Shown in pieces: positions 32,257 through 63,285 of a stretch of 64,000 nt of DNA. Every line of letters begins with the position of its first letter. Position 1 is the stretch's first letter. The DNA is from Vicinamibacteria bacterium (GTDB lineage Bacteria > Acidobacteriota > Vicinamibacteria > Marinacidobacterales > Marinacidobacteraceae), in contig CAXXLQ010000004.1 in the NCBI GenBank assembly GCA_963668695.2, forward strand, positions 160,001 through 224,000, read 5' to 3'. The notes below the pieces were generated by a model, which was given only the letters and a program-made list of their open reading frames with translations, was not told the DNA's origin and made no database searches. Made by a program: the position numbers and the translations under genes.

Positions 32257-32644
32257 CCAGCAGCCGGTGATGGAACCCCCGTGGCGTTCGGCCGGCGATC
32301 CATCCCGGCCAAACAGCCGGTAGTGGAACCCACGGGGCGTTCGGCCGGCGATCCATCCCGGCTGAACCGCGTCGCTTCGCGCCGCTCATCGTTGCCTTTC
32401 GGTCGAAATACACTCGGTATTCCTCCCTCACGCGCCTTGTCAGCCGGACCCCCACCGGGAGAACTGGGCCTCGCCGACCTCGGCGCTCCCGCGGGTTCCA
32501 CCACCGGCTGTTCACCGCGTCGCTTCGCGTCGCTCATCGTTGCGTTTCGGTCGAAATAAACACGGTATTCCTCCCTCACGCGCCTTGTCAGCCGGGCGCC
32601 TCACCGACCTCGGCGCTCACGCGGGTTCCACCACCGGCCGCTAC
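32257..32644. mobile_element. Composite MITE-like element, family A
   Basis: cagcagccggtgatgg...ccaccggccgctac. Confidence 0.82.
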
Positions 32645-32647
32645 CGC

Positions 32648-43576: not shown

Positions 43577-44466
43577 GACCCGGCCGGTAAGAACAGTCTG
43601 AATCCCGAACTGGCCAGCACCGAAGGCGGAAGGACCAGCGCCGCAGACGGAAGGACCAGCGCTGCAGACGGAAGGAACTGCCGGCGTCGAACCGGAAGGT
43701 TCGGCGCCCGCCTGACGGGGGGGAAAGTGTGAAAGGGGAAACTCCCCCTTTCACAAAAAGACAGCTCCGAAGTCGGAACTCGCCGCCCATGCCGCCATCT
43801 TGAGATCACGTCGTGGACCGGCCTGGTGACAGGGCGGGAGTTCCGACTTCAGGCGCGAAGCGCCGAGCGGCTTCCGGGCGGGGTCCTTTCAGCCTGACAC
43901 AGGGATCAGCCGGACCGCGAGTACGGGCTGACCCTTTCTGGGAACCCAGCAGCCGGTGGACAAAGTCGCGCGGCGTTCAAGCGGCGATGCATCCCGGCTG
44001 AGACGCCCCGCTTCGCGCGGCTCATCGTTGCGCTTCGGTCGAAATACACCCGGTATTCCTCCCTCGCGCGCCTTGTCAGCCGGGCGCCTCGCCCCCACCG
44101 GGAGAACTGGCCGCTCTCGGCGCTCACGCCACTTTGCCCACCGGCCGCTAGACCCGGCCGGTAAGAACAGTCTGAATCCCGGACTGGCCAGCGCTGCAGA
44201 CGGAAGGAACTGCCGGCGTCGAACCGGAAGGTTCGGCGCCCGCCTGACCGGGGGGAAAGTGTGAAAGGGGGAACTCCCCCTTTCACAAAAAGACAGCTCC
44301 GAAGTCGGAACTCGCCGCCCATGCCGCCGTCTTGAGATCACGTCGTGGACCGGCCTGGTGACAGGGCGGGAGTTCCGACTTCAGGCGCGAAGCGCCGAGC
44401 GGCTTCCGGGCGGGGTCCTTTCAGCCTGACACAGGGATCAGCCGGACCGCGAGTACGGGCTGACCC
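43577..44466. repeat. Direct duplication of a multi-hairpin element (358 bp and 316 bp) separated by a MITE
   Basis: 43577-43934 nearly identical to 44151-44466; the 42-bp difference is two extra 21-bp units. Confidence 0.92.
43946..44151. mobile_element. MITE-like element, family A
   Basis: ccagcagccggtgg...ccaccggccgctag. Confidence 0.82.
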
Positions 44467-44493
44467 CGCCCGGGAGCCGCTAGACCCGGAGCG

Positions 44494-46911
44494 CTAGACC
44501 CGGAGCGCGTGACTTGGGGGGACGCGAGCGGCGCGGCGCGCAGGCAGCCAGCTCGCGAGGAGCGACACCCCGAACAGCAAAGCGGCCACCCCGAGGGCGG
44601 CTGCCGGCGCCGGCAGCGCGAAGCCGGTCAGGAGGTTGCGAACGAAGACCACCATCAGAACCATGAACGGAGCGCCGATCAGGAACCCCAATCCGGCCAG
44701 AATCGCCGCCTCGCGCATCACCAAACGCAGCAGCAACCGCGGTGAGGCGCCCAAGGCCGCCCGGACGCCGAACTCGCGGGTGCGCCGGGACACCGAATAC
44801 CGGGTGACCCCGTAGACCCCGGAACCCGCCAGACCGAGCGCGAGCAGTCCGAAGCCGACGAGGAGGACACTGATAGCGTCCAGGCCGACGCGGAACTCGG
44901 CGAGCATCTCGGGGAGCGGGCGCACGTTCGAGGTGGCGATGCTCCGGTCCACTCCGGCGATGGCTCGCCGGACATCCTCTCGAAGGCTGCCCGGGTTCAC
45001 CGTAGAGCGCGCCAGCCCCACGAACACTGGAGACGGATTCTGGGTATAGGGCAGATATACGACGCGCTCCCCCCCGAGGGTGGCGTCAAGGAAAGCGTCC
45101 TGCTTGATGCCGCCTGTGATCCCCACCACCTGCCGGATCTCTCCCGCCACCTCCAGTTGCCGCCCGAGCGCATCCTCGCCCGGCCACGCGGCCGCCGCAA
45201 AGCCGGCGCTCACGAGCAACACCGCCGGCGTCCCCGGGCGGTCGCCAGTCTCGAAGGCGCGCCCCTGGAGCAGCGGGCTCCGCAGGGTTTCGAAATAGGC
45301 CGGCGAGGCGGCAACCACCGTGGCGGTGCGCGCCGGTTGGTCCTCGCTCACCGCCTCCCCGGGCAGTGACCAAGGCAACTTCGGGGAGAAGTAGGTATAG
45401 GGAACGTGGTTCGTGAAAGCGACCGAGGTCACCCCGGGAAGCGCCCGAATCGCTTCCTCCAGCCGCTCGGCGACATCGGCCTGAGCGTCTTGGTCGAGAT
45501 ACCGGCGCTCTGGAAGGTTTACCGTGAACACCAGCAGACCTTCGGGATCGAAGCCGGGATCGGTGTTCGCAACGGACTGGAAGGCGCGCATCAGCGATCC
45601 CGCGCCGCCGAGCAGCACCAGGGCGAGCGCCAGTTGCCCGACCACCAATCCCTTGGCGATGACCCGCCGGCGCCGGCCGAGTTCCCCGCCCCGTCCCTGT
45701 TCCGAGAGTCCTCCCGACAGCGCGGCCCGCGAGGCCTGGAGCGAAGGCGCAAGCCCGAACGTCAGGGCCGCGATCACGGTGACCAGCAGCGTGAAACCAA
45801 CGACGCTGGCGTCTACGACCGGGAGGAAGTGCCGCGGCACCAGATCCGTCCCCGACATGGCTTGCCGGAGCAGGAACACCAGGCCCCAGGCGATCGCGAA
45901 GCCTGCCAGCCCGCTGCCCGCGGCCAGCAGCGCGGATTCCAGCAGGAGTTGCCGCAGCACCCGGGTCGGCGTGGCCCCGACCGCCGCCCGGACCGCGATC
46001 TCTCCCCGGCGGTCCAGCGCGCGGGCGAGGAGCAGGTTGGCCAGATTGGCGCAGGCGATCATCAGGATGAAGAAGATCGTCCCCTGCAGCAGATAGAAGA
46101 AGGTCTCCCGCGGCCCGTAGGTGAGGAGTTCGGCGAGGGTGAGCACGCGGACGCCGAAACCGCGGTTGGCGTCCGGGTAGGCCGCGGCGAGGCGATCATT
46201 CAGGACCTCCATTTCCCGTTGGGCGTCGGTGCTCGAAAGGCCCGCCCTGAGCCGCCCGACCACCATGAGGTCGCGGCGCTCCCGGCTGAGAATGGCCGGA
46301 GAAAGCTCCATCGGCGTCCACACCGCGACCCCGGCCTGAAGGAACTCGAATCCTTCCTCGAGCACGCCGACGACCTCGTGCGGCTCGCCCTCCAGCTGGA
46401 TCTGCCCGCCCACGAGAGCCGGATCGCCTCCCCAGCGGTTCTGCCAATGAAAATGGGACAGGACGGCGAGCCGCAGACCGGCCTCCGCCTCTTCCGGCCG
46501 GAACACCCGCCCGAGATGGAGGCGAGCGCCGAGCAGCGGGAAGAACTCCGCGGTCACTTCGGCGCCGCTGATCGGTTCCGGCAGGTCGCCTCCCGTGATG
46601 CTCATCGGGCGGATGCGCTGCGCGGCGAGCACCTCGAAGGACTCGGCGGTCCGCCGCCAATCGTCGAAGTTGGCCGACGCCACGGGGATGAGATCGATCG
46701 CCGGGTTCGCCGGATCGGTCTGCCAGAGCATGACCACGCGCTCCGGATCCGGATAGGGCATCGGCCGCAGCAGCAAGGCGTTCATGAAGGAAAACTGCGC
46801 GCCGTTCCCGGCGATGGCGAGCGCGAGGGAAGCCGCCGCGAGCCCGGTCAGGAGGGGACGGCTGCGCAGCGAGCGGATCGCGAACCGCAGATCGGCGACC
46901 CACTGGTTCAT
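44494..46911 (-). CDS. ADOP-type duplicated ABC permease (MacB/FtsX-like)
   Basis: DLRFAIRSL, IACANLANLLLAR, EIAVRAAVGA, REFGVRAALGA, PARRAARV; ATG overlaps the selB TGA. Confidence 0.92.
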   Translation of the reverse strand: MNQWVADLRFAIRSLRSRPLLTGLAAASLALAIAGNGAQFSFMNALLLRPMPYPDPERVVMLWQTDPANPAIDLIPVASANFDDWRRTAESFEVLAAQRIRPMSITGGDLPEPISGAEVTAEFFPLLGARLHLGRVFRPEEAEAGLRLAVLSHFHWQNRWGGDPALVGGQIQLEGEPHEVVGVLEEGFEFLQAGVAVWTPMELSPAILSRERRDLMVVGRLRAGLSSTDAQREMEVLNDRLAAAYPDANRGFGVRVLTLAELLTYGPRETFFYLLQGTIFFILMIACANLANLLLARALDRRGEIAVRAAVGATPTRVLRQLLLESALLAAGSGLAGFAIAWGLVFLLRQAMSGTDLVPRHFLPVVDASVVGFTLLVTVIAALTFGLAPSLQASRAALSGGLSEQGRGGELGRRRRVIAKGLVVGQLALALVLLGGAGSLMRAFQSVANTDPGFDPEGLLVFTVNLPERRYLDQDAQADVAERLEEAIRALPGVTSVAFTNHVPYTYFSPKLPWSLPGEAVSEDQPARTATVVAASPAYFETLRSPLLQGRAFETGDRPGTPAVLLVSAGFAAAAWPGEDALGRQLEVAGEIRQVVGITGGIKQDAFLDATLGGERVVYLPYTQNPSPVFVGLARSTVNPGSLREDVRRAIAGVDRSIATSNVRPLPEMLAEFRVGLDAISVLLVGFGLLALGLAGSGVYGVTRYSVSRRTREFGVRAALGASPRLLLRLVMREAAILAGLGFLIGAPFMVLMVVFVRNLLTGFALPAPAAALGVAALLFGVSLLASWLPARRAARVPPSHALRV

Positions 46912-48857
46912 CTGGGGGAAACTCCCGGCGCCGCGCCAGTGCGGATCTTTCGCAGGTTCCCCACCCGCACCGTCACCCGCTCGCGGTCGAGCCACTCCAG
47001 CAGCGGGATGGCGTGCTTGCGGCTCAGCCCAAAGTTCTGCTTGAACCAGGCAACATCGATCTCGGGATTCACCGTGGCCCGTTCCGCTACGGCTTGGCGA
47101 AGTCTGGCGAGCCGGGCGGCATCGAAGTAGAGGTCGGGACTTACGTCCACGGCGCGGCCTTCCCGGAGCAGCAGGCGCCTTAGGGCATCCACGAGTTCCG
47201 GCGGAACCCCGAGTTCTTCCGCCGCTTCCCCGAGGGTAGGCGGAGTGAATCCGCCTTCGTCGAGCAGCCCCGCCAGACCGTCGAGAGCGCGCTGCTCGGA
47301 ATCCGAGAGCTGGATCTGCCGGCCCGCGGTGCCGACCGTGTGGCGGGTGAGCTCGAGGGCGCCGGCGCTTGCGAGACGCGCCAGCGCGCCGTCCGCCACT
47401 ACCGCGGGGACGCCGGTCTGTTCCCGGAGTTGTTCCACCGGCATCCCGGCCCGCAGCCGGTTTTCGGTTTCCCAGGCGGTGAGCAGCGAGGTCATCCGCT
47501 CCTGCACCGCTCGCAGACTGGGCGGCGACAGGAGAACCCGTCCAGCCGCGCTGGCCGGAGCGCCGTCGCCTACCGCTTCGATCTCGCCCCGTTCGCGGAG
47601 TTCCCGAAGCACCCGTGCGGCAGCCGGCGCGCGAATTCCGAGTCGGGTGCGCAGCAACCCTTCGCTCAATCCGCGGACCCCCGCCTCGTCCACGAACGCG
47701 ACCGCGGCACGGGCGTCGGTCGCGCGATCGAGGGCGAGAACCCGCTCGTGAGCCGCCGGGCTTCTCGGAGAGCGTTTGGGGGGCAGCGCATCCAGGATGG
47801 CCCCACCGCCAATGGTGATGACCGGCGAATAACGCCGGATGATGAATCGATCGCCGCGCACCGCCGTCAACGGGGTCTCCAGGCGCAACTGGACGAGGCC
47901 GGAATCTCCGGGAGCGAGCTGCGCCAGCCCGCCGAGAACCCGCACCCGGGCGAGTGCGGTGGCGGTGCCGACGTGCAGGTGCACCCGGTTCTCGTCCTGG
48001 ACCGGTCCGGCGGCCCACGCCAGCACCTCCAGCCGGGCGTCCACCATCCGGGTGGAAGCCAGTTCGCCGGGCGCCGCGATCACCGACCCCCGCTCAGCCC
48101 GGAAACGGCCGGCTCCGGAGAGGTTGACAGCGACCCGCTGGCCGGCTTGAGCCGACTCGACGGGGGCTCCGTGTACCTGCAGGCCCCGGACCCGGGCGCG
48201 CTCCCCACCGGGGAGGATTTCCACGTCGCCACCGACCCTGACCTGGCCGGCGACGAGCGTGCCGGTGACGACCGCGCCGAAACCGCGCATGGTGAAGGCG
48301 CGGTCGACGGGCAACCGGAAGAGACCCGAGACGTCCCGGGGCCCGGCGGCGGCTGCCGCCGCTGCGAGTGCCTCCCTGAGTTCACCGAGTCCCTCGCCGG
48401 TCTTCGACGAGACGGGCACCAGCGGCGCCCCAGCCATCGCCGACCCTTCAAGCAACTCGCGCACTTCGAGGGCCGCAATCTCGATGAACTCCCGGTCCTC
48501 CACGAGATCAATCCGGGTGAGCACCACTACGGCGGACCGAACCCCAAGCAGCCGGCAGATCTCGATGTGCTCGCGGGTCTGGGGCATGACGGATTCGTCG
48601 GCAGCCACCACCAGCAGCACCACGTCGAAACCGGACGCGCCCGCGAGCATGTTGCGCACGAAGCGCTCGTGGCCCGGCACGTCCACGAAGCCGTAGGTCA
48701 CTCCCTCGTGCTCGAGATGGGCGAACCCGAGGTCCACGGTGATGCCGCGAGCCTTCTCTTCCTTCAGCCGGTCGGGATCGGTCCCGGTGAGCGCGAGGAC
48801 CAGCGAACTCTTCCCGTGGTCGATGTGGCCGGCGGTGCCGACCACCACGTGGCGCAT
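46908..48857 (-). CDS. selB: Selenocysteine-specific translation elongation factor
   Basis: [38 protein letters not shown]-terminal winged helix [13 protein letters not shown]. Confidence 0.96.
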
Positions 48858-48861
48858 GGTC

Positions 48862-49090
48862 TCAACCACCCGGGGGAAAAGCACCCCGCCCCGCTCTCAG
48901 GGTGACGCCTGCGCCGCATCTGGAGGTTTGTGCGCGGGCGGAGCACTTTTCCCACGGGTGGATGGCTCGGATCGCTGCGCGATCCGAGCCATCGTTTCTC
49001 GTGGGGAGGGGAAACCCCTCCCCACGCCCCACCCCCGCGGCGCTACGCGCCGCGAACGGACACGGGGAGACTTTCTCCACAGCCTGCCAA
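48862..49090. mobile_element. MITE-like element, family B, abutting the selB start
   Basis: homologous to 24762-24991 and 50104-50318; right end ctttctccacagcctgccaa. Confidence 0.75.
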
Positions 49091-49184
49091 GTGTACGGAG
49101 TAGAGAACGCCGCGAGCCAGCCGCACAACCCCTGATAATCCCCCTGACGCCTGACGCTTCCATTCCGAACGGAGGATCGAGACC

Positions 49185-50057
49185 ATGCGACGCACACGTT
49201 TCTGGAACCCCACGCTACTCACCGCCGGGCTCTCCTTGGCGCTTCCTGGCGCCGCGGCGGCCCAGCAGGGGCCCGAGAAGGGCTCCTTGGTCATCGTCGG
49301 CGGAGCGCTCCGCGACGAAGCGATCCTCGAGCGCTTCATCAGCCTCGCAGGCGGTCCCGAAGCCGCCATCGTGATCATTCCCACGGCCGGCGGCGAAGAC
49401 GACTACGACGACTGGTACGCGGGGGCGCGCCGGTTCCGGGAACTGGGCGCCACCGACATCACCGTGATCCACACCTGGGACCGGGAAGAGGCCGAGAGCG
49501 AGGAGTTCGCGGCGCCGATCACGAAGGCCCGCGGCGTGTGGTTCCCCGGCGGACGGCAATGGCGGCTGGTGGACGCCTACGCCGACACCCGCACCGAGCG
49601 TGAGCTCCACGCCCTGCTGGCCCGCGGCGGGGTGATCGGCGGTTCTTCGGCCGGTGCGACGATCCAGGGCGAATATCTCGCCCGCGGCGACACGAGCGGC
49701 AACACCATCATGATGGGAGACCACGAAGAGGGATTCGCCTTCGTTCGCGGGGTGGCCATCGACCAGCACCTGCTGGTGCGGAACCGGCATTTCGACCTGC
49801 TCGAAATCACCGCCGCGAAACCCGAGCTTCTCGGGATCGGAATCGACGAAGACACCGCCATCGTGGTGCGCGGAAACGGATTCGAGGTCATCGGACAGGG
49901 CTACGTGGCCATCTACGACAACACGCGGGTCCTGCCGAACGGCGGCGGGTTCTACTTCCTGATGCCCGGCGACCGCTACGACCTCGAGACCCGGGAACCG
50001 ATGCGCCTCCAGTTGGGGGACAGCGCGTTCCAGACCACCGTCAAGAAGAAGCGCTGA
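49185..50057 (+). CDS. Secreted cyanophycinase (peptidase S51)
   Basis: LVIVGG, IPTA, GGRQWRL, GGSSAGA, IDQH, GIDEDTA; signal peptide; GGAGG RBS. Confidence 0.9.
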
Positions 50058-50103
50058 TTCCGGCGTCCCGGCGCCGCCGGCCGGGGGTTGGTGTGTTCAC
50101 GGG

Positions 50104-50318
50104 TCAACAGCCCGTGGAAAAAGCACCCCGCACTGTGCCGAGGACGAAAGGCGAACCGAATCTGGGTTTTGCGCGCGTGCGGGGCGCTTTCCCCCCGGGG
50201 TGAGGGCGCGATTCGCGCCCTCGTCTTTCGCGAGGAGGGGAAACCCCTCCCCGCACCCCTCCCCCGCGGCGCTCCGCGCCGCGAATGGACAGCGGCAGAT
50301 TTCCCCACCGGCCGTTGA
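50104..50318. mobile_element. MITE-like element, family B
   Basis: tcaacagcccgtggaaaaag...tttccccaccggccgttga. Confidence 0.78.
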
Positions 50319-50355
50319 TATCGCAAATGTCTTTGAAATGTAATATTTTGTTCAT

Positions 50356-50908
50356 ATGCGGTGGCAAGAGGCGATTCGGACGCCCGGGCTGGGGCGGCGA
50401 GTGGCTCCCCTGATCCTCGCCGCCGCGGCTGTCGCGGCTCTCGCCGGAGCCGACGAGCCTGAAGTCCTCCCACGGAGCATCTATGTTCCGGTGCGTATCG
50501 AGGTTGCCTCCTGTCTTCGGGACGTCGTGATTCGCAACGAAGAAGGCACGGTGCGGGCCGTGGCGCCGGGACGGCTGGTCAGCCAGTTCACCTTTTTACG
50601 ACTCCAAACCCGGCTCCAAACCGGAATGGGAACGCCTTACGGTTGAGGGCTGGGTCGAGGCAACACCCGGCGACAGCGGCGAAAACGCGGACCCCAAACC
50701 GTTTCGCGCCGGGATCGTCATCACCCCGGCCAGCATCTACGTCGGCCGGAAACGGCTCGATCTGGAACTCGAGAACCGCTTACAGGCATTCCGGTGGCGG
50801 ACCGATCTCCGGTTCCCCGAGCGCACCCTTCGTCTGCGCCCAGCCGGAAAATGTGACAAAGAGGTTACAGAGGCTGACCGTCACCCTCGGCCGCCGGCTG
50901 GACCATAA
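50356..50908 (+). pseudogene. Secreted hypothetical protein split by a frameshift at a T5 run
   Basis: the signal-peptide ORF continues, after a 1-base shift near 50595, as FYDSKPGSKPEWERLTVEGWVE... to TAA 50908. Confidence 0.55.
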
Positions 50909-51719
50909 AGGCGCCGTCTTCCAGGCGCAGCGCCGTCAGCGAGCCGTTCCAGACGCAACCCGAATCCAGGCACACCGCCCGCTCCGAAACCATGAGGCCC
51001 AGTGCGGCCCAGTGGCCGAAGAGCACGGTCATTCCCGCGGGTAGCGAAACGCTTTCGAACCACGGCCGATGACCCGGCGGGATGGTTTCGGGAACCCCGT
51101 CGAACGTGAACGACGGCGTTCCCTCGGCGTCCACGATGCGTATCCGCGTGAACACCGATGCGGCCGTCGCGCCCGCCAGGTGCCGCCCGCCGGCCGGACC
51201 GTTCGGGCCCGGCGCTTCCTCAGGGTTCTTCTTCCGCCGCGGGCTGTCGCCCCTTACCGAATAGAGAGCGCGCAAGAAACCGCCGCGGTCCTCGGTGAGG
51301 GCGCCCTTGGCGTCCCCCGCCGCGGCTTCGATATCGGAGAGATCCCATCGAGGGAGCGTTCCGGCGTGCACGAGGAGGAAGCCGTCCTCCCGGTGGACAA
51401 AGGGGAGTCCCGCGACCCAATCGCAGAGCTCATCGGCGTCGGGCGCGGCCAGCACCGGCGCGAGGGTGTCGCGGCGGCGGGCGGGGATCACACCCTCCCG
51501 CTGGGCCAGGAGGTGCAGCTCGTGATTCCCGAGCACGCAGACGATCGAGTCCCGGTGCCGGTACGCCCAGCGCAGCATGCCGAGGGAATCCGGACCCCGA
51601 TTGACCAAGTCCCCGACGAACCACATTCGGTCCCGGCCGGGCCGGAACGGGAGGCGATCCAGGAGACGCTCGAACGTGCTAAAACACCCCTGCACATCGC
51701 CGACGACCCAGATTGCCAC
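50865..51719 (-). CDS. apaH: Symmetrical bis(5'-nucleosyl)-tetraphosphatase
   Basis: GDVQGC, GDLVNRGP, LGNHE, FGHWAALG, LDSGCVW. Confidence 0.95.
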   Translation of the reverse strand: MAIWVVGDVQGCFSTFERLLDRLPFRPGRDRMWFVGDLVNRGPDSLGMLRWAYRHRDSIVCVLGNHELHLLAQREGVIPARRRDTLAPVLAAPDADELCDWVAGLPFVHREDGFLLVHAGTLPRWDLSDIEAAAGDAKGALTEDRGGFLRALYSVRGDSPRRKKNPEEAPGPNGPAGGRHLAGATAASVFTRIRIVDAEGTPSFTFDGVPETIPPGHRPWFESVSLPAGMTVLFGHWAALGLMVSERAVCLDSGCVWNGSLTALRLEDGAFMVQPAAEGDGQPL

Positions 51720-51980
51720 AGGCGGTGATGCTATCCCCGATTGCGCACGCCGACCGACCGCGAACCACGACGAAGGGTCCCGTAACGTCTTGCCCGTAAC
51801 CTCTTGACGGTACGCGGGCTATTCGTGAGCCTGGGACCCTCGCTTTCTTGACGGCGCCGAGGCACGGGAACGCCGGCCCGTCCTCCCGGTGGGTGCCTTC
51901 AGACCGGCGCCGCTCGGCGACCGCGCAGCGAAACCGCACGATTCCCGGCACCCGGATGGCCCGACCGTGAATAACCGTTC

Positions 51981-53492: not shown

Positions 53493-53524
53493 AGGGGCGG
53501 CGCCGGCCGCCGCCGGAAAGTCGC

Positions 53525-54153: not shown

Positions 54154-54164
54154 TCGTCCGGGAA

Positions 54165-54790: not shown

Positions 54791-54928
54791 ACGGATCAGA
54801 AAGTTGAGACGGGAATGACCGCCCCGAGGGCAAAAGTGCGGCTCAGGCATCGAGGGCGGATTGTGGTTGTCCCTTGTTGCCTAGCCGTGAAGCGTGCGAA
54901 AACTCACCGCCAAATCCTGCGCAGCGCG

Positions 54929-54956
54929 ATGAACCCGGTTTGAACCGCGTGTGAAC
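54929..54956 (-). promoter_or_regulatory. Putative Pho box (three GTTCA repeats, 11-bp period)
   Basis: GTTCAC-acgcg-GTTCAA-accgg-GTTCAT on the - strand. Confidence 0.6.
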
Positions 54957-55093
54957 GCCGGTCCCGAGGGAGGTCTCGTGACGCCGGGGCGATCCCCGCG
55001 GAAACGGCGCGGGGGCTCCGGCCCCTTCCGCTACCGAGCTAGCGCACCACCCGCTACCCGGCAGCCGCCGCCCGGCCCCGAATCGAGGGAGGG

Positions 55094-56374
55094 TCAGTTG
55101 CGCCGGGGGTTCTGGAAGTCGAAGAGCCACTGGAAGAGAAGCAGTAGCTCGTGGTCGCCGGTGGCGCCGAACCGCCAACGGTAGTCGGCGGAAAGATGGG
55201 TCCTGTTCCACGGGAGTTCGTATCGAGCTCCGGCGATCACGTAGCTGGAGTGCCCCGGGTTGGCCAGCGGGCCATGGTTCGTTTCCGTCCCGAGCTCCGC
55301 GGCGGCCCAGATGCCCTGGGGAAGACGATGGCGGAGCCGGGCGAAACCGCCAAGGTGTTCCCTGCCGTGCTGCTCCCGGCGGAAGGCGGCGCCGCGAAAC
55401 ACCTGGCCGGAGCCGAGCACACCATCCACATGGACCCCCGTCTGCCGCCGCGGCACGAGGGCGTCGTCCGGTCCGTCGCGGCCTTCATAGTGGCCGGCGT
55501 CCACCAACCAGGAGCTCCCGGCAACGTCGAACGTGCGGCCCACGCTCGCCAGCACGTCCTTCGACGAGTTGTTCTCTGCCTCATTTCCACTGCCCTGCAC
55601 CACATGAAGCCGGGCGTTATAAGGACCCTGGTCAGCGAAAAGGAAGACTCCCACCTCCCTCGACCGGGTCAGGCTGGAGCCGACCGCGGCGTACACCATC
55701 TGGCGGGAATGTGACGACTCGGTGAACTCTCCGAGCCAGGCAAGCGAACTGCGCCCTGCGCGTACCTGGAGCCCTCCGCCGACGTCGAACTGCACCCAGA
55801 AGTCATGCATGCGGGTCTTGCCCAGGTCGTAGGTGATGTTCGTGACGATGCGGTCCCCGATCTTGGTCTTGCTCCAGATCGAAAAACTGCTGATCTCCGC
55901 GTCGCCGAGTTCCTGGAACTCATCCAGGACCCGGCCGCGAAACCGCACGTTGAAATCCACGAGCGACGCCGCTCCGGCGCTGCCCTGGGCGGCCACGTCC
56001 GAATCCGATTCCCCGTTCGCTGCCTCTTCCGCGGCGAGGGCCTTCTCGTCGTCGGCGAGTTGAATCTCGCGCGTACGCGGTTCCGGTTCGATCGCTGCGG
56101 ACTCGCCGGCGGCCACCGCAGCCTCGGACGAACTTCTTCCGGTCGCCGGTTGCCTGGCCGCTTCCTGGATTTCCGTCTCGGGGGTTTCCGTCTCGGGGGT
56201 TTCGGTCTCGGGCAGAACTGCGCCCGCACCCGCGAACACGCTCCCGGCCACCGCCCAGAGCGTCAGCGACAAAGAGACCGAAGGGAAAAACGACCGACGC
56301 CGGAAGATTGGGAAGGCGGGTGAAGCGGAGCCGTCGGAGCGGCCGCGCTCGAACCGCGTAGGTGCCCCCAACAT
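55094..56374 (-). CDS. Outer-membrane porin, possibly phosphate-selective (OprO/OprP-like)
   Basis: signal peptide, low-complexity linker, beta-strand pattern; Pho-box-like repeats upstream; family call weak. Confidence 0.55.
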   Translation of the reverse strand: MLGAPTRFERGRSDGSASPAFPIFRRRSFFPSVSLSLTLWAVAGSVFAGAGAVLPETETPETETPETEIQEAARQPATGRSSSEAAVAAGESAAIEPEPRTREIQLADDEKALAAEEAANGESDSDVAAQGSAGAASLVDFNVRFRGRVLDEFQELGDAEISSFSIWSKTKIGDRIVTNITYDLGKTRMHDFWVQFDVGGGLQVRAGRSSLAWLGEFTESSHSRQMVYAAVGSSLTRSREVGVFLFADQGPYNARLHVVQGSGNEAENNSSKDVLASVGRTFDVAGSSWLVDAGHYEGRDGPDDALVPRRQTGVHVDGVLGSGQVFRGAAFRREQHGREHLGGFARLRHRLPQGIWAAAELGTETNHGPLANPGHSSYVIAGARYELPWNRTHLSADYRWRFGATGDHELLLLFQWLFDFQNPRRN

Positions 56375-56398
56375 GAGGCGCCATGTTGTTTCTCCGGC

Positions 56399-56479
56399 AT
56401 GACGGGTCCTTGAACCATTCGTGAAACAAGGTTTAAGATCGAGTGAATATTCAGGGACTCAAAATGAATTCAATGTGAA
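56399..56479 (-). promoter_or_regulatory. Putative multi-unit Pho box
   Basis: TTCAC/TTAAA/TTCAC/TTCAA/GTCAT at 11-bp period (56443, 56432, 56421, 56410, 56399) plus a pair at 56475/56464. Confidence 0.6.
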
Positions 56480-56535
56480 CGCAGATTTGCGCAACGTTAC
56501 GGCTTCGAAAATCCGCGTGCCCGCGACCCCGAGCG

Positions 56536-56758
56536 TTAACAGCCTGTGGACAGAGTGGCGTGAGCGCCGAGAGCGGCGAGGCGCCCGGCTGACAAGGCGC
56601 GCGAGGGAGGAGCCCCCACCGGGAGAACTGGCCCGGGTGTATTTCGACCGAAGCGCAACGATGAGCGACGCGAAGCGGCGCGGTTCAGCCGGGATGCATC
56701 GCCGCTCGAGCCCCCACCGGGAGAACTGGGCCGCGTGATTTTGTCTACAGGCTGTTAA
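56536..56758. mobile_element. MITE-like element, family A
   Basis: ttaacagcctgtgg...ctacaggctgttaa; its TTAA end coincides with the pheA stop. Confidence 0.88.
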
Positions 56759-57594
56759 TGTGAGGTGCGCACCGGATCGGCCGGATAGACCCCCAGGATC
56801 CTGACCGACCGGGAGAAGAAGCGGAGTTCTTCGAACGCCTTCGCCACCCCGGAGTGCTCGGGATGGCCGGCCACGTCACAGTAGAACTGGGTCGAAGTGA
56901 ACGAGCCGTCCAGCATGTAGCTTTCGAGCTTCTGCATGTTCACTCCATTGGTCGCGAACCCACCGAGCGCCTTGTAGAGGGCGCCCGGGAGATTCCGCAC
57001 CTGGAACACGAACGTAGTGATCGCGTCGGCGTCGCGCGGAACCGTAACCGGCTCCCGGGCCATGACGAGGAACCGGGTGATGTTCAGCGAGATGTCCGCG
57101 ATGTCCGGCGCCAGAATCGAGAGTCCGTGAATCCCAGCGGCAAGCGCCGAGGCGATCGCCGCTTTCGTGGGGTCTCCGCTTCTCGCGATCATTATCGCGG
57201 CCCCGGCGGTATCCGCCTCCGCCACTGGGCGGAGGCGTCGGCCGCGGATGAATTGCCGGCACTGGGCGAGCGCGTGCGGGTGGCTGTGGACGGTCCGGAG
57301 TCCGCCGAGCCTGGCTCCGGGCAGCCCGAGGAGCTGGTGCCGCACCCGGTGAAAGGCTTCACCGACGATTTGCAGACGGGATTCGGGCAGGAGGCGATGG
57401 ATGTCGGCGACTCGTCCGGCGACCGAATTCTCGATGGGGATCATCGCGAGTTCCGCGCTCCCCTCGGCCACTGCCGCGAACGCGTCCTCAAAGCCCTCGA
57501 AGGACAGCGGCTCATGATCCGGATGCCGGTCCCGACAGGTCAGGTCGGAGTAGGAGCCGGGGTGTCCCTGAAACGCGATTTTCGGTCCGGACAT
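56755..57594 (-). CDS. pheA: Prephenate dehydratase
   Basis: IAFQGHPGSYS, PIENSVAG, SHPHALAQC, NITRF, ACT domain KLES. Confidence 0.95.
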   Translation of the reverse strand: MSGPKIAFQGHPGSYSDLTCRDRHPDHEPLSFEGFEDAFAAVAEGSAELAMIPIENSVAGRVADIHRLLPESRLQIVGEAFHRVRHQLLGLPGARLGGLRTVHSHPHALAQCRQFIRGRRLRPVAEADTAGAAIMIARSGDPTKAAIASALAAGIHGLSILAPDIADISLNITRFLVMAREPVTVPRDADAITTFVFQVRNLPGALYKALGGFATNGVNMQKLESYMLDGSFTSTQFYCDVAGHPEHSGVAKAFEELRFFSRSVRILGVYPADPVRTSH

Positions 57595-57641
57595 AGACCG
57601 CGGGAGCATATGCGCCAACTGTGTGTACGATTTCTCCGGCC

Positions 57642-58346
57642 GTGAAACACATCCTGGTCATCGAAGACGATCCGGACATCGTCGAGTTGCTCCGCTACAA
57701 CCTGGAGCGCGAGTCCTACCGCGTGACCTCCGCCGTCACCGGCGCGGAGGGATGGGCCCAATTGGAGCGGGAGCGACCGGATCTCTTGATCCTGGATCTG
57801 ATGCTGCCGGAGATCAGCGGGTTCGATCTGTGCCGGCGCCTGCGCCGGGACTCCGAATATCAGAGCCTCCCGGTGATCATGCTGAGCGCGCGGAGCGAAG
57901 AGGCCGACGTGATCGCGGGCATCGAACTCGGGGCGGACGACTACATCACGAAGCCGTTCAGCCCCCGGGAGCTGGTGGCGCGGGTCGGGGCGGTGCTCCG
58001 CCGTACCGGAAGGACCGAGCAGCCGGCCCCGTCGCCCGACGAGGGCGCCCTCCAGTTCGGTGACTTGGTGATTGACCCGACGTCGCACCGGGTGCAGCGG
58101 GGCGGAGACGACCTTCCGGTGACGCACCTGGAGTTCAAACTGCTCCACTATCTGGCGTCCCACCCGCGACGCGTCTTCTCCCGGGAGCAGCTCCTCGACC
58201 GGGTGTGGGGACATGAGAAATACATCACGCTGCGCAGCGTGGATGTCTATGTTCGGCGGCTGCGCCAGAAGGTTGACGTATCGGGGGATTCCTCGTTCCT
58301 GAAGACGGTTCGGGGCGCCGGGTATCGCTTCGAACCTCCACCTTGA
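57642..58346 (+). CDS. phoB: OmpR/PhoB family response regulator
   Basis: LDLMLP, GADDYITKPFS, RSVDVYVRRLRQK, TVRGAGY; paired with a PhoR-like kinase. Confidence 0.85.
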   Translation: MKHILVIEDDPDIVELLRYNLERESYRVTSAVTGAEGWAQLERERPDLLILDLMLPEISGFDLCRRLRRDSEYQSLPVIMLSARSEEADVIAGIELGADDYITKPFSPRELVARVGAVLRRTGRTEQPAPSPDEGALQFGDLVIDPTSHRVQRGGDDLPVTHLEFKLLHYLASHPRRVFSREQLLDRVWGHEKYITLRSVDVYVRRLRQKVDVSGDSSFLKTVRGAGYRFEPPP

Positions 58347-60295
58347 ATCCCCGGACGACCGACGACCCAGCGCGACCCTGGCGGGGCCGCCGGCCGTCGC
58401 GGCTTGCGCTCCGGCTGACGGCGGCAAGCCTGCTGGTCGCGCTGGCGGCGCTGTTCGCGGTGCTCGCGACCACGGCGCAGGTCGTGAGAGAAAGCGCCGT
58501 CGCTTCCACCTTCGCCAACCTGGACGGAGTTGCCGAGGTGGGGCTCGCCAACCCGCCGGTGGAACCCTCCGCGGAGGCTCTTCGGGAGTGGGCCATGGCG
58601 CTCGCCTCCTTCGAGGCGGACGCCAGGGCCGAGGGAGCCACTCCGACGCGGCCCGAGCGGCGGGTCACGCTCATTGCGCTCGATGGGACTGTGCTCGCGG
58701 ATTCCCACGAAGACGCCCGGACCATGGACAACCATCGGGACCGCCCTGAAATAAGCGCCGCCTTTGCCACCGGCTATGGCCGCTCGCAGCGCTTCAGCGA
58801 CACTCGCGGCGAGGACCTCACCTACGTGGCGGTGAGGATCCCGGAGCGTGAAGCGACGGTGCTGCGCCTCTCGGAACCGGTTGTCCAACTGGAAGAAACC
58901 GTGAGCACCATCCTGACTCCGGTGGTCGTGGTGACGCTCCTCGCCTTCATCGTTGCCGCCGGGTTCTCCTTCTGGTATGCGGCCCGCTTCGGCAAGCGCG
59001 TGGCGCGGCTCCGCCGGTTCTCGGAACGGGTGGCCCGAGGTGATTTCACACCGGAGGCCGCGCCTCTCAAGATGGACGAACTCGACCAGTTGCTGGCTTC
59101 CCTCAACCGGACGGCGCGGGAACTGCAGCGCAGTTTCCAGTCCCTGACCGCCGAGAAGAACCAGGGCGCCACGATCCTGTCAAGCGTGGCCGAGGGCGTC
59201 GCGGTCTTCGACGAGGAACTCCGGATCCAGTATGTGAACGGCGCCTTTCGCGAGGTGCTTTCCCTTCCGGGCGAGTCGTGGCGGGACTATCGGGGGCGCG
59301 ACGCCCGGAACGTCCTCGAGAAAAAGCGCCTCCTGAAGATGGTCCGAGCCGCGATGAAGGGCAAGTCTCGTGAACGCGAGATCTCCCTGAACGGAAGGGA
59401 GGTTCTGGTCCGCGCGGCCCCCATCCGTTCCGCCGAGCCCGAAGTGCCGATGGCTTCCCAGCTCGAAGGAAACGGTCTCGAAGGAAACGGTTCTGCGGGG
59501 TCCGAGCCGGCGGGGGCGGTACTGGTGCTCTTGGACGTGACCCAACTCCACGCGCTGGAGCGGATGCGGCGCGACTTCGTGGCCAATCTCTCCCACGAAC
59601 TCAGAACGCCCCTGACCGCGATTCGGGGTTTTTCGGAAACGCTACTGGACGGAGACCTGGAAGACGTGCCGGAGCAAAAGCGTTTCCTCGGGATCATTCG
59701 GCGGCATTCCGTCCGGCTTTCACATCTCACGGACGACCTGCTGCAGCTCGCCCGGATCGAGGCAGGCAAACAGGAGACCGAAACCGTTCCCGTCCAAGTG
59801 GACGCGCTGGTCGAGTCGGTCGTGGAATCGGCGCGAGTGAAGGCGGGGGCGCGGAAGCTCACAACGGCGGGTTCCCGAGAGCCGGTGCAGATCTACACCG
59901 ACCCAACCCTGCTGACGGAGATCCTGCAAAACCTGGTGGACAACGCCATCCAGTACTCCGGGGAAAACGGACGGGTCGAGGTCGCGACCGAGTGCTCGGC
60001 GGGCGAAGCCTTGATCTCGGTCACTGACAACGGCGTGGGAATCCCCAAGGCCCACCAAAGCCGGATCTTCGAACGCTTTTACCGGGTGGATCCGGCTCGC
60101 TCGCGTGAAGTGGGCGGCACGGGACTCGGCCTCGCCATCGCCAAGCACACCGCGGACCTCCTGGGTGGGCGCATCGAGGTCGAGAGTGCGCCGGACCGCG
60201 GCTCGCGGTTCACCGTCGCCTTGCCGGTCGGCGGCCCGAACGCTCCGCCTCACGAGGTGAGCGCCGACGACGACCCCGGCCACCTTCTGGCCTAG
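58343..60295 (+). CDS. phoR: PhoR-like sensor histidine kinase (HAMP-PAS-HisKA-HATPase)
   Basis: MDNHRDRPEI, RRDFVANLSHELRTPL, NLVDNA, RIFERFYRVD, GGTGLGLAI. Confidence 0.88.
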   Translation: MNPRTTDDPARPWRGRRPSRLALRLTAASLLVALAALFAVLATTAQVVRESAVASTFANLDGVAEVGLANPPVEPSAEALREWAMALASFEADARAEGATPTRPERRVTLIALDGTVLADSHEDARTMDNHRDRPEISAAFATGYGRSQRFSDTRGEDLTYVAVRIPEREATVLRLSEPVVQLEETVSTILTPVVVVTLLAFIVAAGFSFWYAARFGKRVARLRRFSERVARGDFTPEAAPLKMDELDQLLASLNRTARELQRSFQSLTAEKNQGATILSSVAEGVAVFDEELRIQYVNGAFREVLSLPGESWRDYRGRDARNVLEKKRLLKMVRAAMKGKSREREISLNGREVLVRAAPIRSAEPEVPMASQLEGNGLEGNGSAGSEPAGAVLVLLDVTQLHALERMRRDFVANLSHELRTPLTAIRGFSETLLDGDLEDVPEQKRFLGIIRRHSVRLSHLTDDLLQLARIEAGKQETETVPVQVDALVESVVESARVKAGARKLTTAGSREPVQIYTDPTLLTEILQNLVDNAIQYSGENGRVEVATECSAGEALISVTDNGVGIPKAHQSRIFERFYRVDPARSREVGGTGLGLAIAKHTADLLGGRIEVESAPDRGSRFTVALPVGGPNAPPHEVSADDDPGHLLA

Positions 60296-62252
60296 CACTG
60301 GTGCTGCGGGCAGGCTCGGCGCCGAGCCCGAATTCCAGATCGCCAAGAAGCGTATCCACCCGGACCAGTTGGGCTTCGAGAGAATCACCGATCCGGAAAC
60401 TCCGGCCGGTCGCCGGACACCGGAGCGAATAGTCCTGCCGGTGGAAGCGGAAGCGCCCGCCCGGTAGCAGCTCCATCGGGACGGTACCGCGGGCGGGAAT
60501 GCCCTCGAGTTCGATCGCGAGACCAAAACGGCCGGTCTCGGAAACGCGGGCGGCGAAGGTGTCCCCGAGCCGCCCCGCGAGGAGGCGGGCGATCCGGCGT
60601 TCCACCAGGTCCCTCTCGGCGGCCTCGGCGCTTCGCTCGGCCCCGGAACAGGTGGCCGCCAGCGCCGGCAGCGCCTGGAGGTGCAGATGCCCGGCAAGAT
60701 CCGTCCCGGCGGCCAGCGCCCGGTGGGCGATGAGGTCCGGGTACCGCCGGATGGGTGAAGTGAAATGGGTGTAATCCGGCAGCGCCAGCGCAAAGTGCCC
60801 CTCGCCGCGGGGCGAGTACTCCGCCTTCTTCATGGCCCGGAGAAGCCTCCGGCGGAGGAAGGGCGCTTCCGGGCGGTCTTTGATGCGCGCCAGCAGCCGG
60901 GCGCAGTGCACGGGCCGGAGCGGCTCTGAGGGAACACGCAATCGTTCTCCAAAGCCGGTCAGGAGATCCTCGAAGGCGTCGATCCGGGTTTCGTCGGGAG
61001 ATCCGTGGACGCGGTGGAGAGCTGCCGTTTTGGTGGTTCGGAGGTGCTCGGCTACCGCCTGGTTGGCCAGGAGCATGAAATCCTCTACCAGGCGGTGTGC
61101 GTCGTTTCGCTCGGCGTAGCGGGCGTCCACCAGGTTGCCCGCCGCGTCGGAGGTGACCACCGGTTCGGGCAGGTCGAGATCCATCGCACCGCGCTGGAGG
61201 CGCGCTCTTCCCAACAAAGCGGCGGCGCGGCCCATCGTCCGGACGGCCGTTCCGATCGGACCGGCATCGTCCCCGTCCCCCGCGAGCAGGCGCGCCCCGT
61301 CCTCGTAGGACAGCCGGGCAACGCTTCGGATCAGGCTTCGGGAAAAACGCGCCTCACGAAGCCGCCCCTCCGAGTCGATCCGCAGGTTCGCCGACTGCAC
61401 CAGCCGGTCAACCTCGGGAAACAGCGAGCAGATGCCCGAGGAGAGCGCTTCGGGCAGCATCGGGATGGCGCGCTCGGGGAAGTACACCGAGGTCCCCCGC
61501 CGCGCCGCCTCCTCGTCCACCGGACTGCCGGGCGGAACGTAGTGGCTGACGTCGGCGATGTGGACACCGATCTCGAAGCCGCCGTCGGGAAGCTCGGTCG
61601 CCTCGATCGCGTCGTCGTGGTCGCGCGCGTCTTCCGGATCCATCGTCAGGATCAGGCGGCCGCGGAGGTCCTGGCGCCCGCCGAGTTCGCTTGCGGAGAC
61701 CGCACCCGGAGCGGCCGCCGCCTGGGCGAGGGCCGCTGGGGGAAACTCGTCCCGGATACCGTGCCGCGCGAGCACCGCGAGGAGCTCCGCCCCCGGGTCG
61801 TCGGCGGCGCCGAATACTGCCGTTATTTCTCCGACCACCGGCTTCCCGGGTGCCGGGAAGCGGCGAATCCGGACCTCCACCAGGTCCCCGGGGCGAGCGC
61901 CGCCGGAAGGCACGAGAATCTCGCGCGCCCACTGCCGATCCCACACCGCGACGGTCCGCTCCGCGGTGAACAGCCCGACAACCCGAGCGGTCTTTCGGGT
62001 GAGTACCCGCACGACCGCACCCTCAAGCCGGCCGCGCCGGGTCCGAAAAGAAACCTCGGCCTCGACCAGATCCCCCGGCAGAGCCCCACCAACCCGGCTG
62101 CCGGTGACGTGGATGTCTTCCAGCGATTCACGGCCCTCCGGCACAACCCAGCCGTCGCCCTGAGATCGTCCCTGAAAACGCCCCCGGACCATACGGGACG
62201 GATCGCGCTCGCCCCTCCGGCGCCGCCTCGCGCCGTGACTCGATCTGGCCAC
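60210..62252 (-). CDS. rnr: Ribonuclease R (RNB family)
   Basis: DPEDARDHDDA, VHIADVSHYV, RGTSVYFP, EDFMLLAN, YTHFTSPIRRYPDL, Arg-rich tail. Confidence 0.93.
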   Translation of the reverse strand: MARSSHGARRRRRGERDPSRMVRGRFQGRSQGDGWVVPEGRESLEDIHVTGSRVGGALPGDLVEAEVSFRTRRGRLEGAVVRVLTRKTARVVGLFTAERTVAVWDRQWAREILVPSGGARPGDLVEVRIRRFPAPGKPVVGEITAVFGAADDPGAELLAVLARHGIRDEFPPAALAQAAAAPGAVSASELGGRQDLRGRLILTMDPEDARDHDDAIEATELPDGGFEIGVHIADVSHYVPPGSPVDEEAARRGTSVYFPERAIPMLPEALSSGICSLFPEVDRLVQSANLRIDSEGRLREARFSRSLIRSVARLSYEDGARLLAGDGDDAGPIGTAVRTMGRAAALLGRARLQRGAMDLDLPEPVVTSDAAGNLVDARYAERNDAHRLVEDFMLLANQAVAEHLRTTKTAALHRVHGSPDETRIDAFEDLLTGFGERLRVPSEPLRPVHCARLLARIKDRPEAPFLRRRLLRAMKKAEYSPRGEGHFALALPDYTHFTSPIRRYPDLIAHRALAAGTDLAGHLHLQALPALAATCSGAERSAEAAERDLVERRIARLLAGRLGDTFAARVSETGRFGLAIELEGIPARGTVPMELLPGGRFRFHRQDYSLRCPATGRSFRIGDSLEAQLVRVDTLLGDLEFGLGAEPARSTSARPEGGRGRRRRSPREAERSGRRPARRR

Positions 62253-62280
62253 CAGCCTGCTAAACTCGCGCGCTCCGCGG

Positions 62281-62364
62281 GCCGAAGTGGCGGAACGGCA
62301 GACGCGCTGCGTTCAGGGCGCAGTACTCCTTGCGAGTGTCAGGGTTCAAATCCCTGCTTCGGCA
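62281..62364 (+). tRNA. tRNA-Leu (anticodon CAG)
   Basis: acceptor stem GCCGAAG/CTTCGGC-A, anticodon arm CTGCG-TTCAGGG-CGCAG, long variable arm, TTCAAAT T-loop; CCA not fully encoded. Confidence 0.95.
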
Positions 62365-62368
62365 CCGC

Positions 62369-63285
62369 GCGCTGGTCGGCGTAGGGGTGGGGCGCACCGG
62401 CGTGGTCCGGGGCAGAAACACAATCATTGGTCAGGCGGGCGCCCCACCCCTACGCCGAACGGCACTTCGTGCCTCCGAATCGGAACTCGCCGCATCTGTG
62501 CGGGGAAAGTCTGAACCATCAAGCACGATCCCTACGCGGCGAGTTCCGATTCGCGCTGTCTGTCTTGTGAACGGGGGGCAGGCCCCCCTTTCACTCTTTC
62601 CCCCCGATACCGGCGGGCAGCGAACAAAGTTCGCTGCCATTGTTTTCCCGTGGGTCAGCACACCTCCACCCGGACAGAACGAGCCGCCGCTCAGGGAACA
62701 CCAGCGCTGGTCGGCGTAGGGGTGGGGCGCACCGGCGTGGTCCGGGGCAGAAACACAATCATTGGTCAGGCGGGCGCCCCACCCCTACGCCGAACGGCAC
62801 TTCGTGCCTCCGAATCGGAACTCGCCGCATCTGTGCGGGGAAAGTCTGAACCATCAAGCACGATCCCTACGCGGCGAGTTCCGATTCGCGCTGTCTGTCT
62901 TGTGAACGGGGGGCAGGCCCCCCTTTCACTCTTTCCCCCCGATACCGGCGGGCAGCGAACAAAGTTCGCTGCCATTGTTTTCCCGTGGGTCAGCACACCT
63001 CCACCCGAACAGAACGAGCCGCCGCTCAGGGAACACCAGCGCTGGTCGGCGTAGGGGTGGGGCGCACCGGCGTGGTCCGGGGCAGAAACACAATCATTGG
63101 TCAGGCGGGCGCCCCACCCCTACGCCGAACGGCACTTCGTGCCTCCGAATCGGAACTCGCCGCATCGTGCTTGTAAAGTCTGAACCATAAGCACGATCTA
63201 GCCGCAGGCGAGTTCCCTTTCGCGCTGTCCTTCTTGTGAACGGGGGAGTACCCCCGCCCACACCCACCCCCCGTTCACGCCGTGC
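62369..63285. repeat. 335-bp tandem repeat (two full copies plus a third that diverges) directly after tRNA-Leu
   Basis: unit starts at 62369, 62704 and 63039; third copy diverges after ~63166; rich in hairpins. Confidence 0.95.

Follow-up and report, generated by a model that had tools for sequence, protein, structure and literature searches.

A five-hairpin mosaic DNA repeat with a class I triplex-type motif in a Vicinamibacteria genome

The element at the two window loci and its family

We analysed a repeated multi-hairpin element in a 64,000-nt stretch of DNA (the window; positions 160001-224000 of contig C4) from a Vicinamibacteria bacterium, assembly GCA_963668695.2, which comprises 4.10 Mb of 67% GC in four contigs and is referred to here as G000. 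A first-pass annotation, made from the letters of the window alone, had described five copies of this element at two distant loci, A and B, and had proposed a structured RNA or single-stranded DNA (ssDNA) selected for its fold. All five copies were located there, with the order of the hairpins and the purine block GGGGGGAAAG as described. Fold and covariation were upheld as well: the element is under selection for folding, its stems being kept by compensatory change, a conclusion that is strongly supported, and of the two nucleic acids originally proposed ssDNA fits better than RNA. The window copies are five of about 100 in the 4.1-Mb genome.

The top strand is defined here as the + orientation at 43.6 kb, the strand on which the element was first described; the B copies lie on the - strand. 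H1 to H5 and S3 denote the hairpins and the long stem, and R1, R2 and Y the purine, purine and pyrimidine arms of the triplex-type motif. The copies and the genes that adjoin them are as follows.

43683-43708, + strand: copy A1, hairpin H1, GGCGTCGAACC-GGAA-GGTTCGGCGCC, with one T.G wobble; the match to the family profile covers 43678-43786 (E 3e-19)
43717-43754, + strand: copy A1, class I triplex-type motif, consisting of R1 (purine), TGT turn, R2 (purine), loop and Y (pyrimidine), with R2/Y being H2
43769-43850, + strand: copy A1, S3 in its long form, with arms of 18 nt and 17 nt and a 47-nt fill between them (the 'cassette' of the first-pass annotation)
43852-43864, + strand: copy A1, mini-hairpin H4, GGCGCGAAGCGCC
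43865-43946, + strand: copy A1, 5' arm and loop of H5 only; the 3' arm is gone and a repeat of another family (43930-44150) starts there
44215-44485, + strand: copy A2, complete, with H1 at 44215-44240, triplex-type motif/H2 at 44250-44286, S3 at 44301-44382, H4 at 44384-44396 and H5 at 44397-44485
44494-48018, - strand: FtsX/MacB-type permease gene, converging, with 8 nt between its stop codon (44494-44496, CTA on +) and the H5 end of A2
62281-62366, + strand: tRNA-Leu(CAG), with 7 nt between its 3' end and the H5 end of copy B1
62374-62650, - strand: copy B1, complete, with H5 at 62374-62460, H4 at 62461-62473 (GGCACGAAGTGCC), S3 in its long form at 62477-62552, triplex-type motif/H2 at 62567-62605, H1 at 62616-62638 and the A-rich lead at 62639-62650 (profile E 2e-27; fold z -8.62)
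62709-62985, - strand: copy B2, same sequence as B1 at an offset of 335 nt
63044-63272, - strand: copy B3, degenerate and without H1, with a variant triplex-type motif at 63236-63272

Both loci are locally duplicated, as had been noted; the measured spacings are 532 nt at locus A, where 299 nt are repeated at 96% identity, and 335 nt at locus B, which holds three units. The window copies match the family profile with E-values of 1e-19 to 2e-27 (6e-09 for B3). Copy A2 ends in CCGCTAGAC and has a DNA fold of -94 kcal/mol (z -7.75); the intact window copies, folded as ssDNA, reach z values of -7.5 to -8.6, equalled by none of 200 shuffles. The paired stem changes that first drew attention to the element are present between the loci, in H1 (GGCGTCGAACC/GGTTCGGCGCC against GGCAGCGAAC/GTTCGCTGCC) and in H4 (GGCGCGAAGCGCC against GGCACGAAGTGCC).

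The family was collected by BLAST and then by nhmmer in three rounds, searching with the 5' 109 nt of the element, which gave 113 genome-wide matches at E<=1e-3, 105 of them above 25 bits. About 45 copies are concentrated at 1.93-2.42 Mb, and tandem arrays occur, one at C4:295374-296242 with six units of some 150 nt each and one at C4:2416833-2417269 with four 110-nt units. We call canonical those 35 of the 105 copies that span 240-253 nt from the profile start to the terminal ..CCGCTCGAC; their aligned consensus has 67 pairs in seven helices. The order is an A-rich lead, H1 (GGCAGCGAAC-loop-GTTCGCTGCC), the purine block GGGGGGAAAG with the TGT turn after it, H2 (GTGAAAGGGGGG-loop-CCCCCCTTTCAC), a linker rich in A, S3 (whose 14-bp outer stem surrounds a short GC hairpin alone), H4 (GGCGCGAAGCGCC, a GCGAAGC mini-hairpin) and H5. 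The last of these, a fifth hairpin at the 3' side, extends the element beyond what had first been recognised; its 20-bp stem is constant at the base, variable over 8-9 bp in the middle and G-rich at the top, and its loop of 41-53 nt is nearly unique to each copy. Other copies carry an extra module of about 90 nt between S3 and H4, tandem repeats of H4+H5 or foreign repeats nested in S3, and one more repeat module often lies upstream of the A-rich lead. We considered H5 as a separate, much more abundant element and rejected this, the 291 loose-pattern matches being an artefact of a palindromic unit that matches on both strands.

Two further observations concern individual copies. An insertion of 1.35 kb at C4:3591900-3593248, resembling an insertion sequence (IS) with inverted ends, splits one copy within the H2 loop, with about 12 nt of the hairpin on both sides and open reading frames (ORFs) of 152-270 aa inside. 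The 144-kb contig C1 and the chromosome contig each carry copies whose flanks are the same (C1:42830-42934/C4:391480-391584 and C1:97471-97570/C4:350133-350232), which indicates segments common to both; the contamination figure of the assembly is 9.3%. Comparison of 20 kb of C1 with plasmid sequences gave just two short matches to Ralstonia, which are uninformative as to the taxon.

The long stem S3 had initially been read as a constant scaffold that holds a variable, guide-like cassette, which would pair with a target. The fill is indeed unrelated between the two window loci, and the H5 hairpin, with its constant base, variable middle and unique loop of constant length, would also suit such a design. 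Nevertheless, it is the window copies that are unusual in having a 42-47-nt fill; each of the 35 canonical copies has only the short GC hairpin at this place, and in the sister-genus genome G019 S3 is either closed by a tetraloop or has a fill of 45-55 nt. The 'variable cassette' is thus the long form of S3. When compared with the genome, the fills of the window copies and the 35 H5 loops matched only their own duplicates or sibling copies, except for four exact 16-17-nt matches that we take as chance, and related loops of sibling copies diverge in the ordinary way. The linked transposase, reverse transcriptase or nuclease gene that had been envisaged was not found beside the copies. A guide function is therefore very improbable.

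Selection on the fold, the folding strand and the triplex-type motif

The fold was evaluated in the 35 canonical copies with nhmmer, RNAalifold and a pair-count tool. Over the 67 consensus pairs, 97.6% of 2337 cells are paired, compared with 90.8% in shuffles, and pairing falls to 36-52% when the partner columns are slid by 1-3 positions. Double-sided changes were detected in 24 of the 67 pairs (149 cells), and none of 500 shuffles reaches any of five measures, although these covariation numbers overstate independence, the copies being paralogues and kin. Half of the covarying pairs (12 of 24) lie in H5, and the B copies of the window add a further double change in H4, from G-C to A-T.

The wobbles are distributed asymmetrically between the strands. 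On the consensus pairs, read on the top strand, there are 124 G.T against 11 A.C wobbles, or 51 against 11 once three nearly fixed wobble columns are removed; counted by column, 27 are G.T-only and 7 are A.C-only (binomial p 8e-4). The base composition of the H5 loops on the same strand (A.244, C.350, G.227, T.179) departs from that of the genome (.163/.338/.337/.162). The G.T excess, together with G-poor and A-rich loops, thus points to the top strand as the folding strand. Minimum free energy folding of both strands of the 35 copies gave G.U counts (168 vs 184) that do not separate the strands; the top strand was the more stable in 28 of the 35.

The purine block is part of a longer symmetry, since GGGGGGAAAG-TGT-GAAAGGGGGG is a perfect mirror repeat, the second arm of which pairs with CCCCCCTTTC. 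In the class I purine-motif intrastrand triplex, as set out in Holder et al. 2015 (PMC4666352), a reverse-Hoogsteen arm lies 5' and is followed by the purine and then the pyrimidine arm, the triads being G.G-C and A(T).A-T. The same source gives the ITxF definition, with stems of 6-15 nt, at most one bad triad and loops of 1-6 nt, and states that purine-motif triplexes are unable to form in RNA. Our own ITxF-style scan, set to stem 9, loops 1-6 and no more than one bad triad, found the class I motif in 83 of the 105 copies, in all cases on the top strand, and found none in 2 Mb of shuffled sequence; the remaining 22 copies have long loops or are degenerate or partial. The block order R1-TGT-R2-loop-Y holds in the window copies and genome-wide. 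A control with the reversed motif matched equally well because the mirror repeat is perfect. With this layout on the folded strand, ssDNA fits better than RNA, which could not form the triplex according to PMC4666352.

We surveyed co-changes between the mirror arms in 95 aligned rows and in separately listed copies, including those of G019. The copy at C1:3457460 of G004 is the sole one with R1 A8->G and also the sole one with R2 A16->G, and its Y arm has the matching T->C. At C4:3174676 of G000, all three A positions are changed in mirror register, which yields two G.G-C triads and one T over C-G, an arrangement favoured in antiparallel triplexes. Window copy B3 (R1 GGGGGGTGGG, TGT, R2 GGGCGGGGG) has both purine arms as in that copy and a Y arm that lags behind, unchanged at CCCCCGTTC; this lag indicates that R1 follows R2 and not Y. 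The commonest change restricted to R1, A9->T in 13 rows, yields T.A-T, which the motif permits. As we know of no copying mechanism that would yield mirror-symmetric changes, the simplest reading of these patterns is that R1 makes contact with the R2-Y helix.

Outside the element, 57 class I motifs were detected, most of them in one unrelated repeat family (47 regex matches). Its motif, GGGG[T/A]GGGG-TGT-GGGGAGGGG-TTT-CCCCTCCCC, has the layout reverse-Hoogsteen arm (RH)-TGT-R-loop-Y with the same TGT turn as in the element, and it is preceded by a mini-hairpin of the GCGNAGC type and followed by a further hairpin. Examples in G000 are C4:52089, 252422, 256091, 463601, 2048164 and 2515582. The sequence of this second family is close to that of TM-ECO, the Escherichia coli triplex repeat, yet its blocks stand in class I order.

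Genomic setting, taxonomic range and spread

With gene calls from our own crude GC3-based finder, by which 74% of contig C4 is called coding, 102 of the 105 copies are intergenic. The neighbour on the H5 (3') side lies on the opposite strand in 79 of the 105, and the stop codon of a converging ORF falls within -6..+60 nt of 20 of the 61 H4+H5 units, 19 of these within 13 nt. The abutting stops of these 20 read CTA in nine cases, TCA in nine and TTA in two. In such cases, for example at an ssb-like gene (..DDIPF*) and a fabF-like gene, the H5 end lies 0-13 nt from the stop, while other H5 ends adjoin either the 3' end of a tRNA or the module that comes next in an array. Because the converging gene is on the opposite strand, the folded strand is antisense to the gene it abuts. 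On the gene-sense strand, the element ends with H1 and a run of T, terminator-like by our scan rule in the B copies of the window and in 60 of the 90 copies with a recognisable H1.

Considering this placement, the element could be a structured RNA, either a family of small RNA (sRNA) genes on the top strand or a cis-acting 3' trailer, a terminator or stabiliser co-transcribed with the neighbouring gene. The strong covariation, the tolerated G.U-type wobbles, the A-rich and G-poor loops, the position directly behind genes and tRNAs, the terminator-like H1 and T-run in 60 of 90 copies and the tandem arrays, which are known for some sRNA families, are all consistent with this explanation. However, wobbles are tolerated on the strand that is antisense to the gene it abuts, so that selection does not act on the fold of a trailer RNA; in 34 of the 105 copies the two neighbours both lie on the opposite strand, a setting in which a top-strand RNA would need its own promoter, and no sigma-70-like promoter was found at either window locus. 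Moreover, the conserved R1 makes sense only as a reverse-Hoogsteen strand, in a type of triplex that is described in PMC4666352 as not forming in RNA. Comparison with Rfam, one of the checks originally proposed, placed the element in no family: the gathering scan of the window returned RNase P only, with tRNA-Leu also reaching its gathering score in a relaxed scan, and the best matches of the element in E-value scans of both loci were 15-22 bits, far under the cut-offs. An RNA function is thus unlikely, and ssDNA remains the preferred form of the folded element.

Discrete transcripts had also been suggested as a check. The transcription data consisted of four metatranscriptome runs in the form of contigs, without strand or ends. 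Bins that contain only the element (44116-44781 and 62764-63400) have summed depths of 0.4-16, like those of the neighbouring genes; this gives no hint of an abundant transcript, though as evidence on transcription it is weak in either direction. The high-depth bins coincide with tRNA-Leu and with another repeat family, found in the window at 24417-24637, 27858-28058, 29062-29262, 31606-31826, 32294-32648, 43930-44150 and 56523-56721. The depth of this other family is very high in the four runs (for example 1555/257/166/229 at 56104-56769, against about 0-20 beside it), and positions 56567 and 56601 are the ends of many metatranscriptome contigs. Either an expressed RNA or the summing of one repeat across many organisms could account for this. 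Many other repeat families are also present in the window, including a tandem array with a 32-nt period and about 17 or more units at 12227-12962 and dense repeat clusters on both sides of the RNase P RNA gene (29837-30210, - strand; class A, 312 bits). The genes of the window include TonB-receptor genes and duplicated FtsX-permease genes.

In G000, element orientation was not associated with local GC skew at 63 loci and three averaging sizes, the origin having been placed by dnaA and skew. In G019, a single-contig genome, contig C1 has 16 forward motif matches at 0.54-1.29 Mb and 11 reverse ones at 1.34-2.86 Mb; 17 of 17 loci (L070-L086) fit one strand switch, with dnaA at 0.11 Mb and an Xer-like recombinase gene at 1.301 Mb.

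A 20-nt motif of the element was found in all 15 other genomes of the genus (g1) and in the single genome of the sister genus (g5, G019). It was absent from all 24 genomes compared from 14 further genera of the order and from all of 400 other genomes of the phylum. By BLAST with whole copies, 17 of 27 other genomes of the family matched, namely 15/15 in g1, 1/1 in g5 and 1/3 in a further genus, g4 (one weak match), with 0/8 in four further genera of the family. The element is confined to one genus and its sister genus, and copy numbers vary widely among the carriers, from 2 to 75 pattern matches.

The sites themselves are variably occupied. Behind the fabF-like gene, the next gene follows after a spacer of just 22-33 nt in 8 of 15 congeners; in G000 and in G001, a close relative, the interval is about 500 nt, with the element starting 3-4 nt after the TGA. 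Other repeat modules are present there in G004, G006, G010 and G012, and in two genomes the second flank lies outside the locus. Across 20 kb of the dense region, the gene blocks are colinear in G000, G001, G004 and G008 and the intergenic chains of modules differ in content and length, which shows that sites are colonised independently and that turnover is fast. Over these 20 kb of G000 against G001, G004 and G008, no sharp ends of single-element insertions or deletions could be defined, because the module chains differ too much, and the 5' boundary of the element is fuzzy. A 185-nt repeat was also noted at C4:2200012-2200196; G001, G004 and G008 carry dozens of copies of it (88-98% identity).

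Several candidate mobilising systems were searched for. The Y1/RAYT transposase family (REP-associated tyrosine transposases, REP being repetitive extragenic palindromic; PF01797) has no match in G000 (91.7% complete) or G019 (93%), and weak matches in G001, G007 and G016, the last without the element. The integron integrase (TIGR02249) was above the cut-off in 0/5 genomes, where generic tyrosine recombinases alone were found, as in 14/14 control genomes. The core sites of integron attC recombination sites are RYYYAAC/GTTRRRY, and the H5 ends were seen to have none. In G000, H5-type ends form nine inverted pairs 0.6-4 kb apart; six of these enclose nine ORFs and three enclose no called ORF. 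A transposase of a parent transposon is absent among these nine ORFs of G000, which encode a flavoprotein, an aminotransferase-like protein, a TPR protein, a formamidase, an FHA protein, PemK and PIN toxins of toxin-antitoxin pairs and a truncated tyrosine recombinase adjacent to a tRNA gene.

The first-pass annotation had itself named as refuting outcomes a lack of significant covariation, a match to a known Rfam or IS-end family, or the lack of both transcription and an associated gene, the last of which would make the element an ordinary miniature inverted-repeat transposable element (MITE). On this account it would have arisen by deletion from a DDE transposon, with terminal inverted repeats and neutral decay, and its hairpins would be by-products of palindromic ends. 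The high copy number, the non-coding and intergenic character, the filled and empty sites and the weak inverted ends of 6-8 bp, CGAGCG...CGCTCG, in many copies agree with such an origin, as do the lack of a linked gene and of demonstrated transcription. Yet covariation is significant, with a conserved core, saturated loops and compensated changes, and neither an Rfam nor an IS-end match was obtained. Furthermore, the element contains five separate hairpins in its interior instead of a single terminal inverted repeat, the junction stops TAG, TGA and TAA do not follow a TA rule, and the search for a parent element in G000 found none. The fabF-like junction, which other modules adjoin, shows no duplication. 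Taken together, these features make an ordinary MITE improbable.

Interpretation and comparison with known systems

We consider it probable that the element is a lineage-specific, non-coding mosaic DNA repeat of five hairpin modules and about 245 nt, present in about 100 copies per genome, that spreads non-autonomously and is selected for its fold as ssDNA. It would move as non-autonomous mobile DNA in the manner of REPIN, bacterial interspersed mosaic elements (BIMEs) or MITEs, presumably through an enzyme, with local duplication adding further copies. Selection would act on the fold of the single-stranded top strand, and that fold may include a class I purine-motif intrastrand triplex in which R1 lies on the R2-Y hairpin, a structure that can be likened to BoxC/TM-ECO, the enterobacterial triplex repeats. 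On the opposite strand, sense for the abutting gene, the element would end in a hairpin and T-run acting as a putative terminator; by bringing its own terminator, an insertion just behind a gene may be tolerated.

Several observations weigh against parts of this proposal. Changes in R2 without a partner in R1 occur at C4:3527616, 2160371 and 3591681 and at G008:2840559; many copies, including nearly all of those in G019, have a conserved A.G mismatch within H2; and the mirror covariation is carried by two or three lineages. The wobble asymmetry and the loop bias may partly reflect strand-biased mutation or a small number of source copies. As for mobility, no target-site duplication, sharp 5' boundary or mobilising enzyme was found, recombination and duplication alone could spread the copies, and orientation shows no association with the direction of replication in G000.

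A more specific form of the proposal is that the folded ssDNA, a triple helix with four hairpins, is recognised by a structure-specific enzyme that places it in fixed orientation a few bases at most from stop codons and tRNA 3' ends. We regard this as doubtful and advance it tentatively. If it were true, the three-way mirror co-changes (A.A-T to G.G-C, and T over C-G) would be natural covariation evidence for a DNA triplex selected in vivo, and the second family with its RH-TGT-R-loop-Y layout would point to triplex modules as building blocks that mobile DNA reuses. What this family adds is a triplex-type module inside a larger, strongly covarying five-hairpin element of an Acidobacteriota lineage, sequence evidence on which strand folds, a few mirror-symmetric co-changes that are readily explained only by a three-strand contact, and a placement that markedly favours the bases immediately behind stop codons and tRNA genes. 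Should the triplex prove real, about 100 natural variants per genome in 17 genomes would form a test set for the roles of DNA triplexes in cells and give a lead toward a structure-specific mechanism of insertion. For annotation, a large part of the long gaps between genes, and of the breaks in the assemblies, of carrier genomes is explained by the element, and caution is advised against labelling its loci as sRNA genes.

Dispersed hairpin repeats and intrastrand triplex motifs are known mainly in proteobacteria and cyanobacteria, and their function is unsettled; a literature search on repeats in sponge Acidobacteria had no relevant title among the 12 listed of 1,463, from which we draw no wider claim of absence. 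MITEs, the pneumococcal BOX and RUP elements and the Correia elements of Neisseria are shorter than 300 nt, non-coding, multicopy, modular, foldable and adjacent to genes, and may carry terminator-like signals. The element has these traits of size, copy number, modularity, folding and placement; it differs from them in that clear terminal inverted repeats, a duplication and a parent IS were not found for it, and in having a fold selected on one strand together with a triplex-type module.

REP elements, like the element described here, are located at gene 3' ends. As described in three reports (PMC3116915, PMC3337134, PMC8266576), REP, REPIN and BIME elements are associated with RAYT transposases, and like the element they are short, extragenic, high-copy hairpins, kept as hairpins in single-stranded nucleic acid, that form mosaic clusters and persist vertically within a lineage. 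In contrast, neither G000 nor G019 has a RAYT/Y1 gene, and the unit of the element is much longer. The REPIN layout, an inverted REP doublet around a spacer, is ruled out by five different hairpins of fixed order and orientation.

The closest likeness in the triplex-type motif is to BoxC/PIT/TM-ECO, the intrastrand triplex repeats of E. coli and other bacteria, as presented by Holder et al. 2015 (PMC4666352). Shared with these are a trio on one strand, formed by two mirror-symmetric purine arms and a complementary pyrimidine arm, G/C-rich stems of 9-10 nt with a 3-nt turn, dozens of highly conserved intergenic copies whose number differs strongly between close relatives, and a link to fast-changing loci. 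The element is class I, with the reverse-Hoogsteen arm first, and TM-ECO is class II; the arms are G6A3G / GA3G6 / C6T3C in the former and of the GGGNGAGGG type in the latter. Furthermore, the motif of the element is one module of a 245-nt five-hairpin unit located behind genes, whereas TM-ECO is a stand-alone 37-nt repeat found more often upstream of ORFs and in a different host phylum. Membership in TM-ECO/BoxC was rejected, as the pattern CCCTCNCCC N3-6 GGGNGAGGG N3 GGGNGAGGG given there does not match the element, which has other arms and the opposite block order. The element is thus not a member of RAYT-REP, TM-ECO, attC or any Rfam family and, judged by its sequence, is best filed as a REPIN/BIME/MITE-like mosaic repeat containing a putative class I intrastrand triplex-type module.

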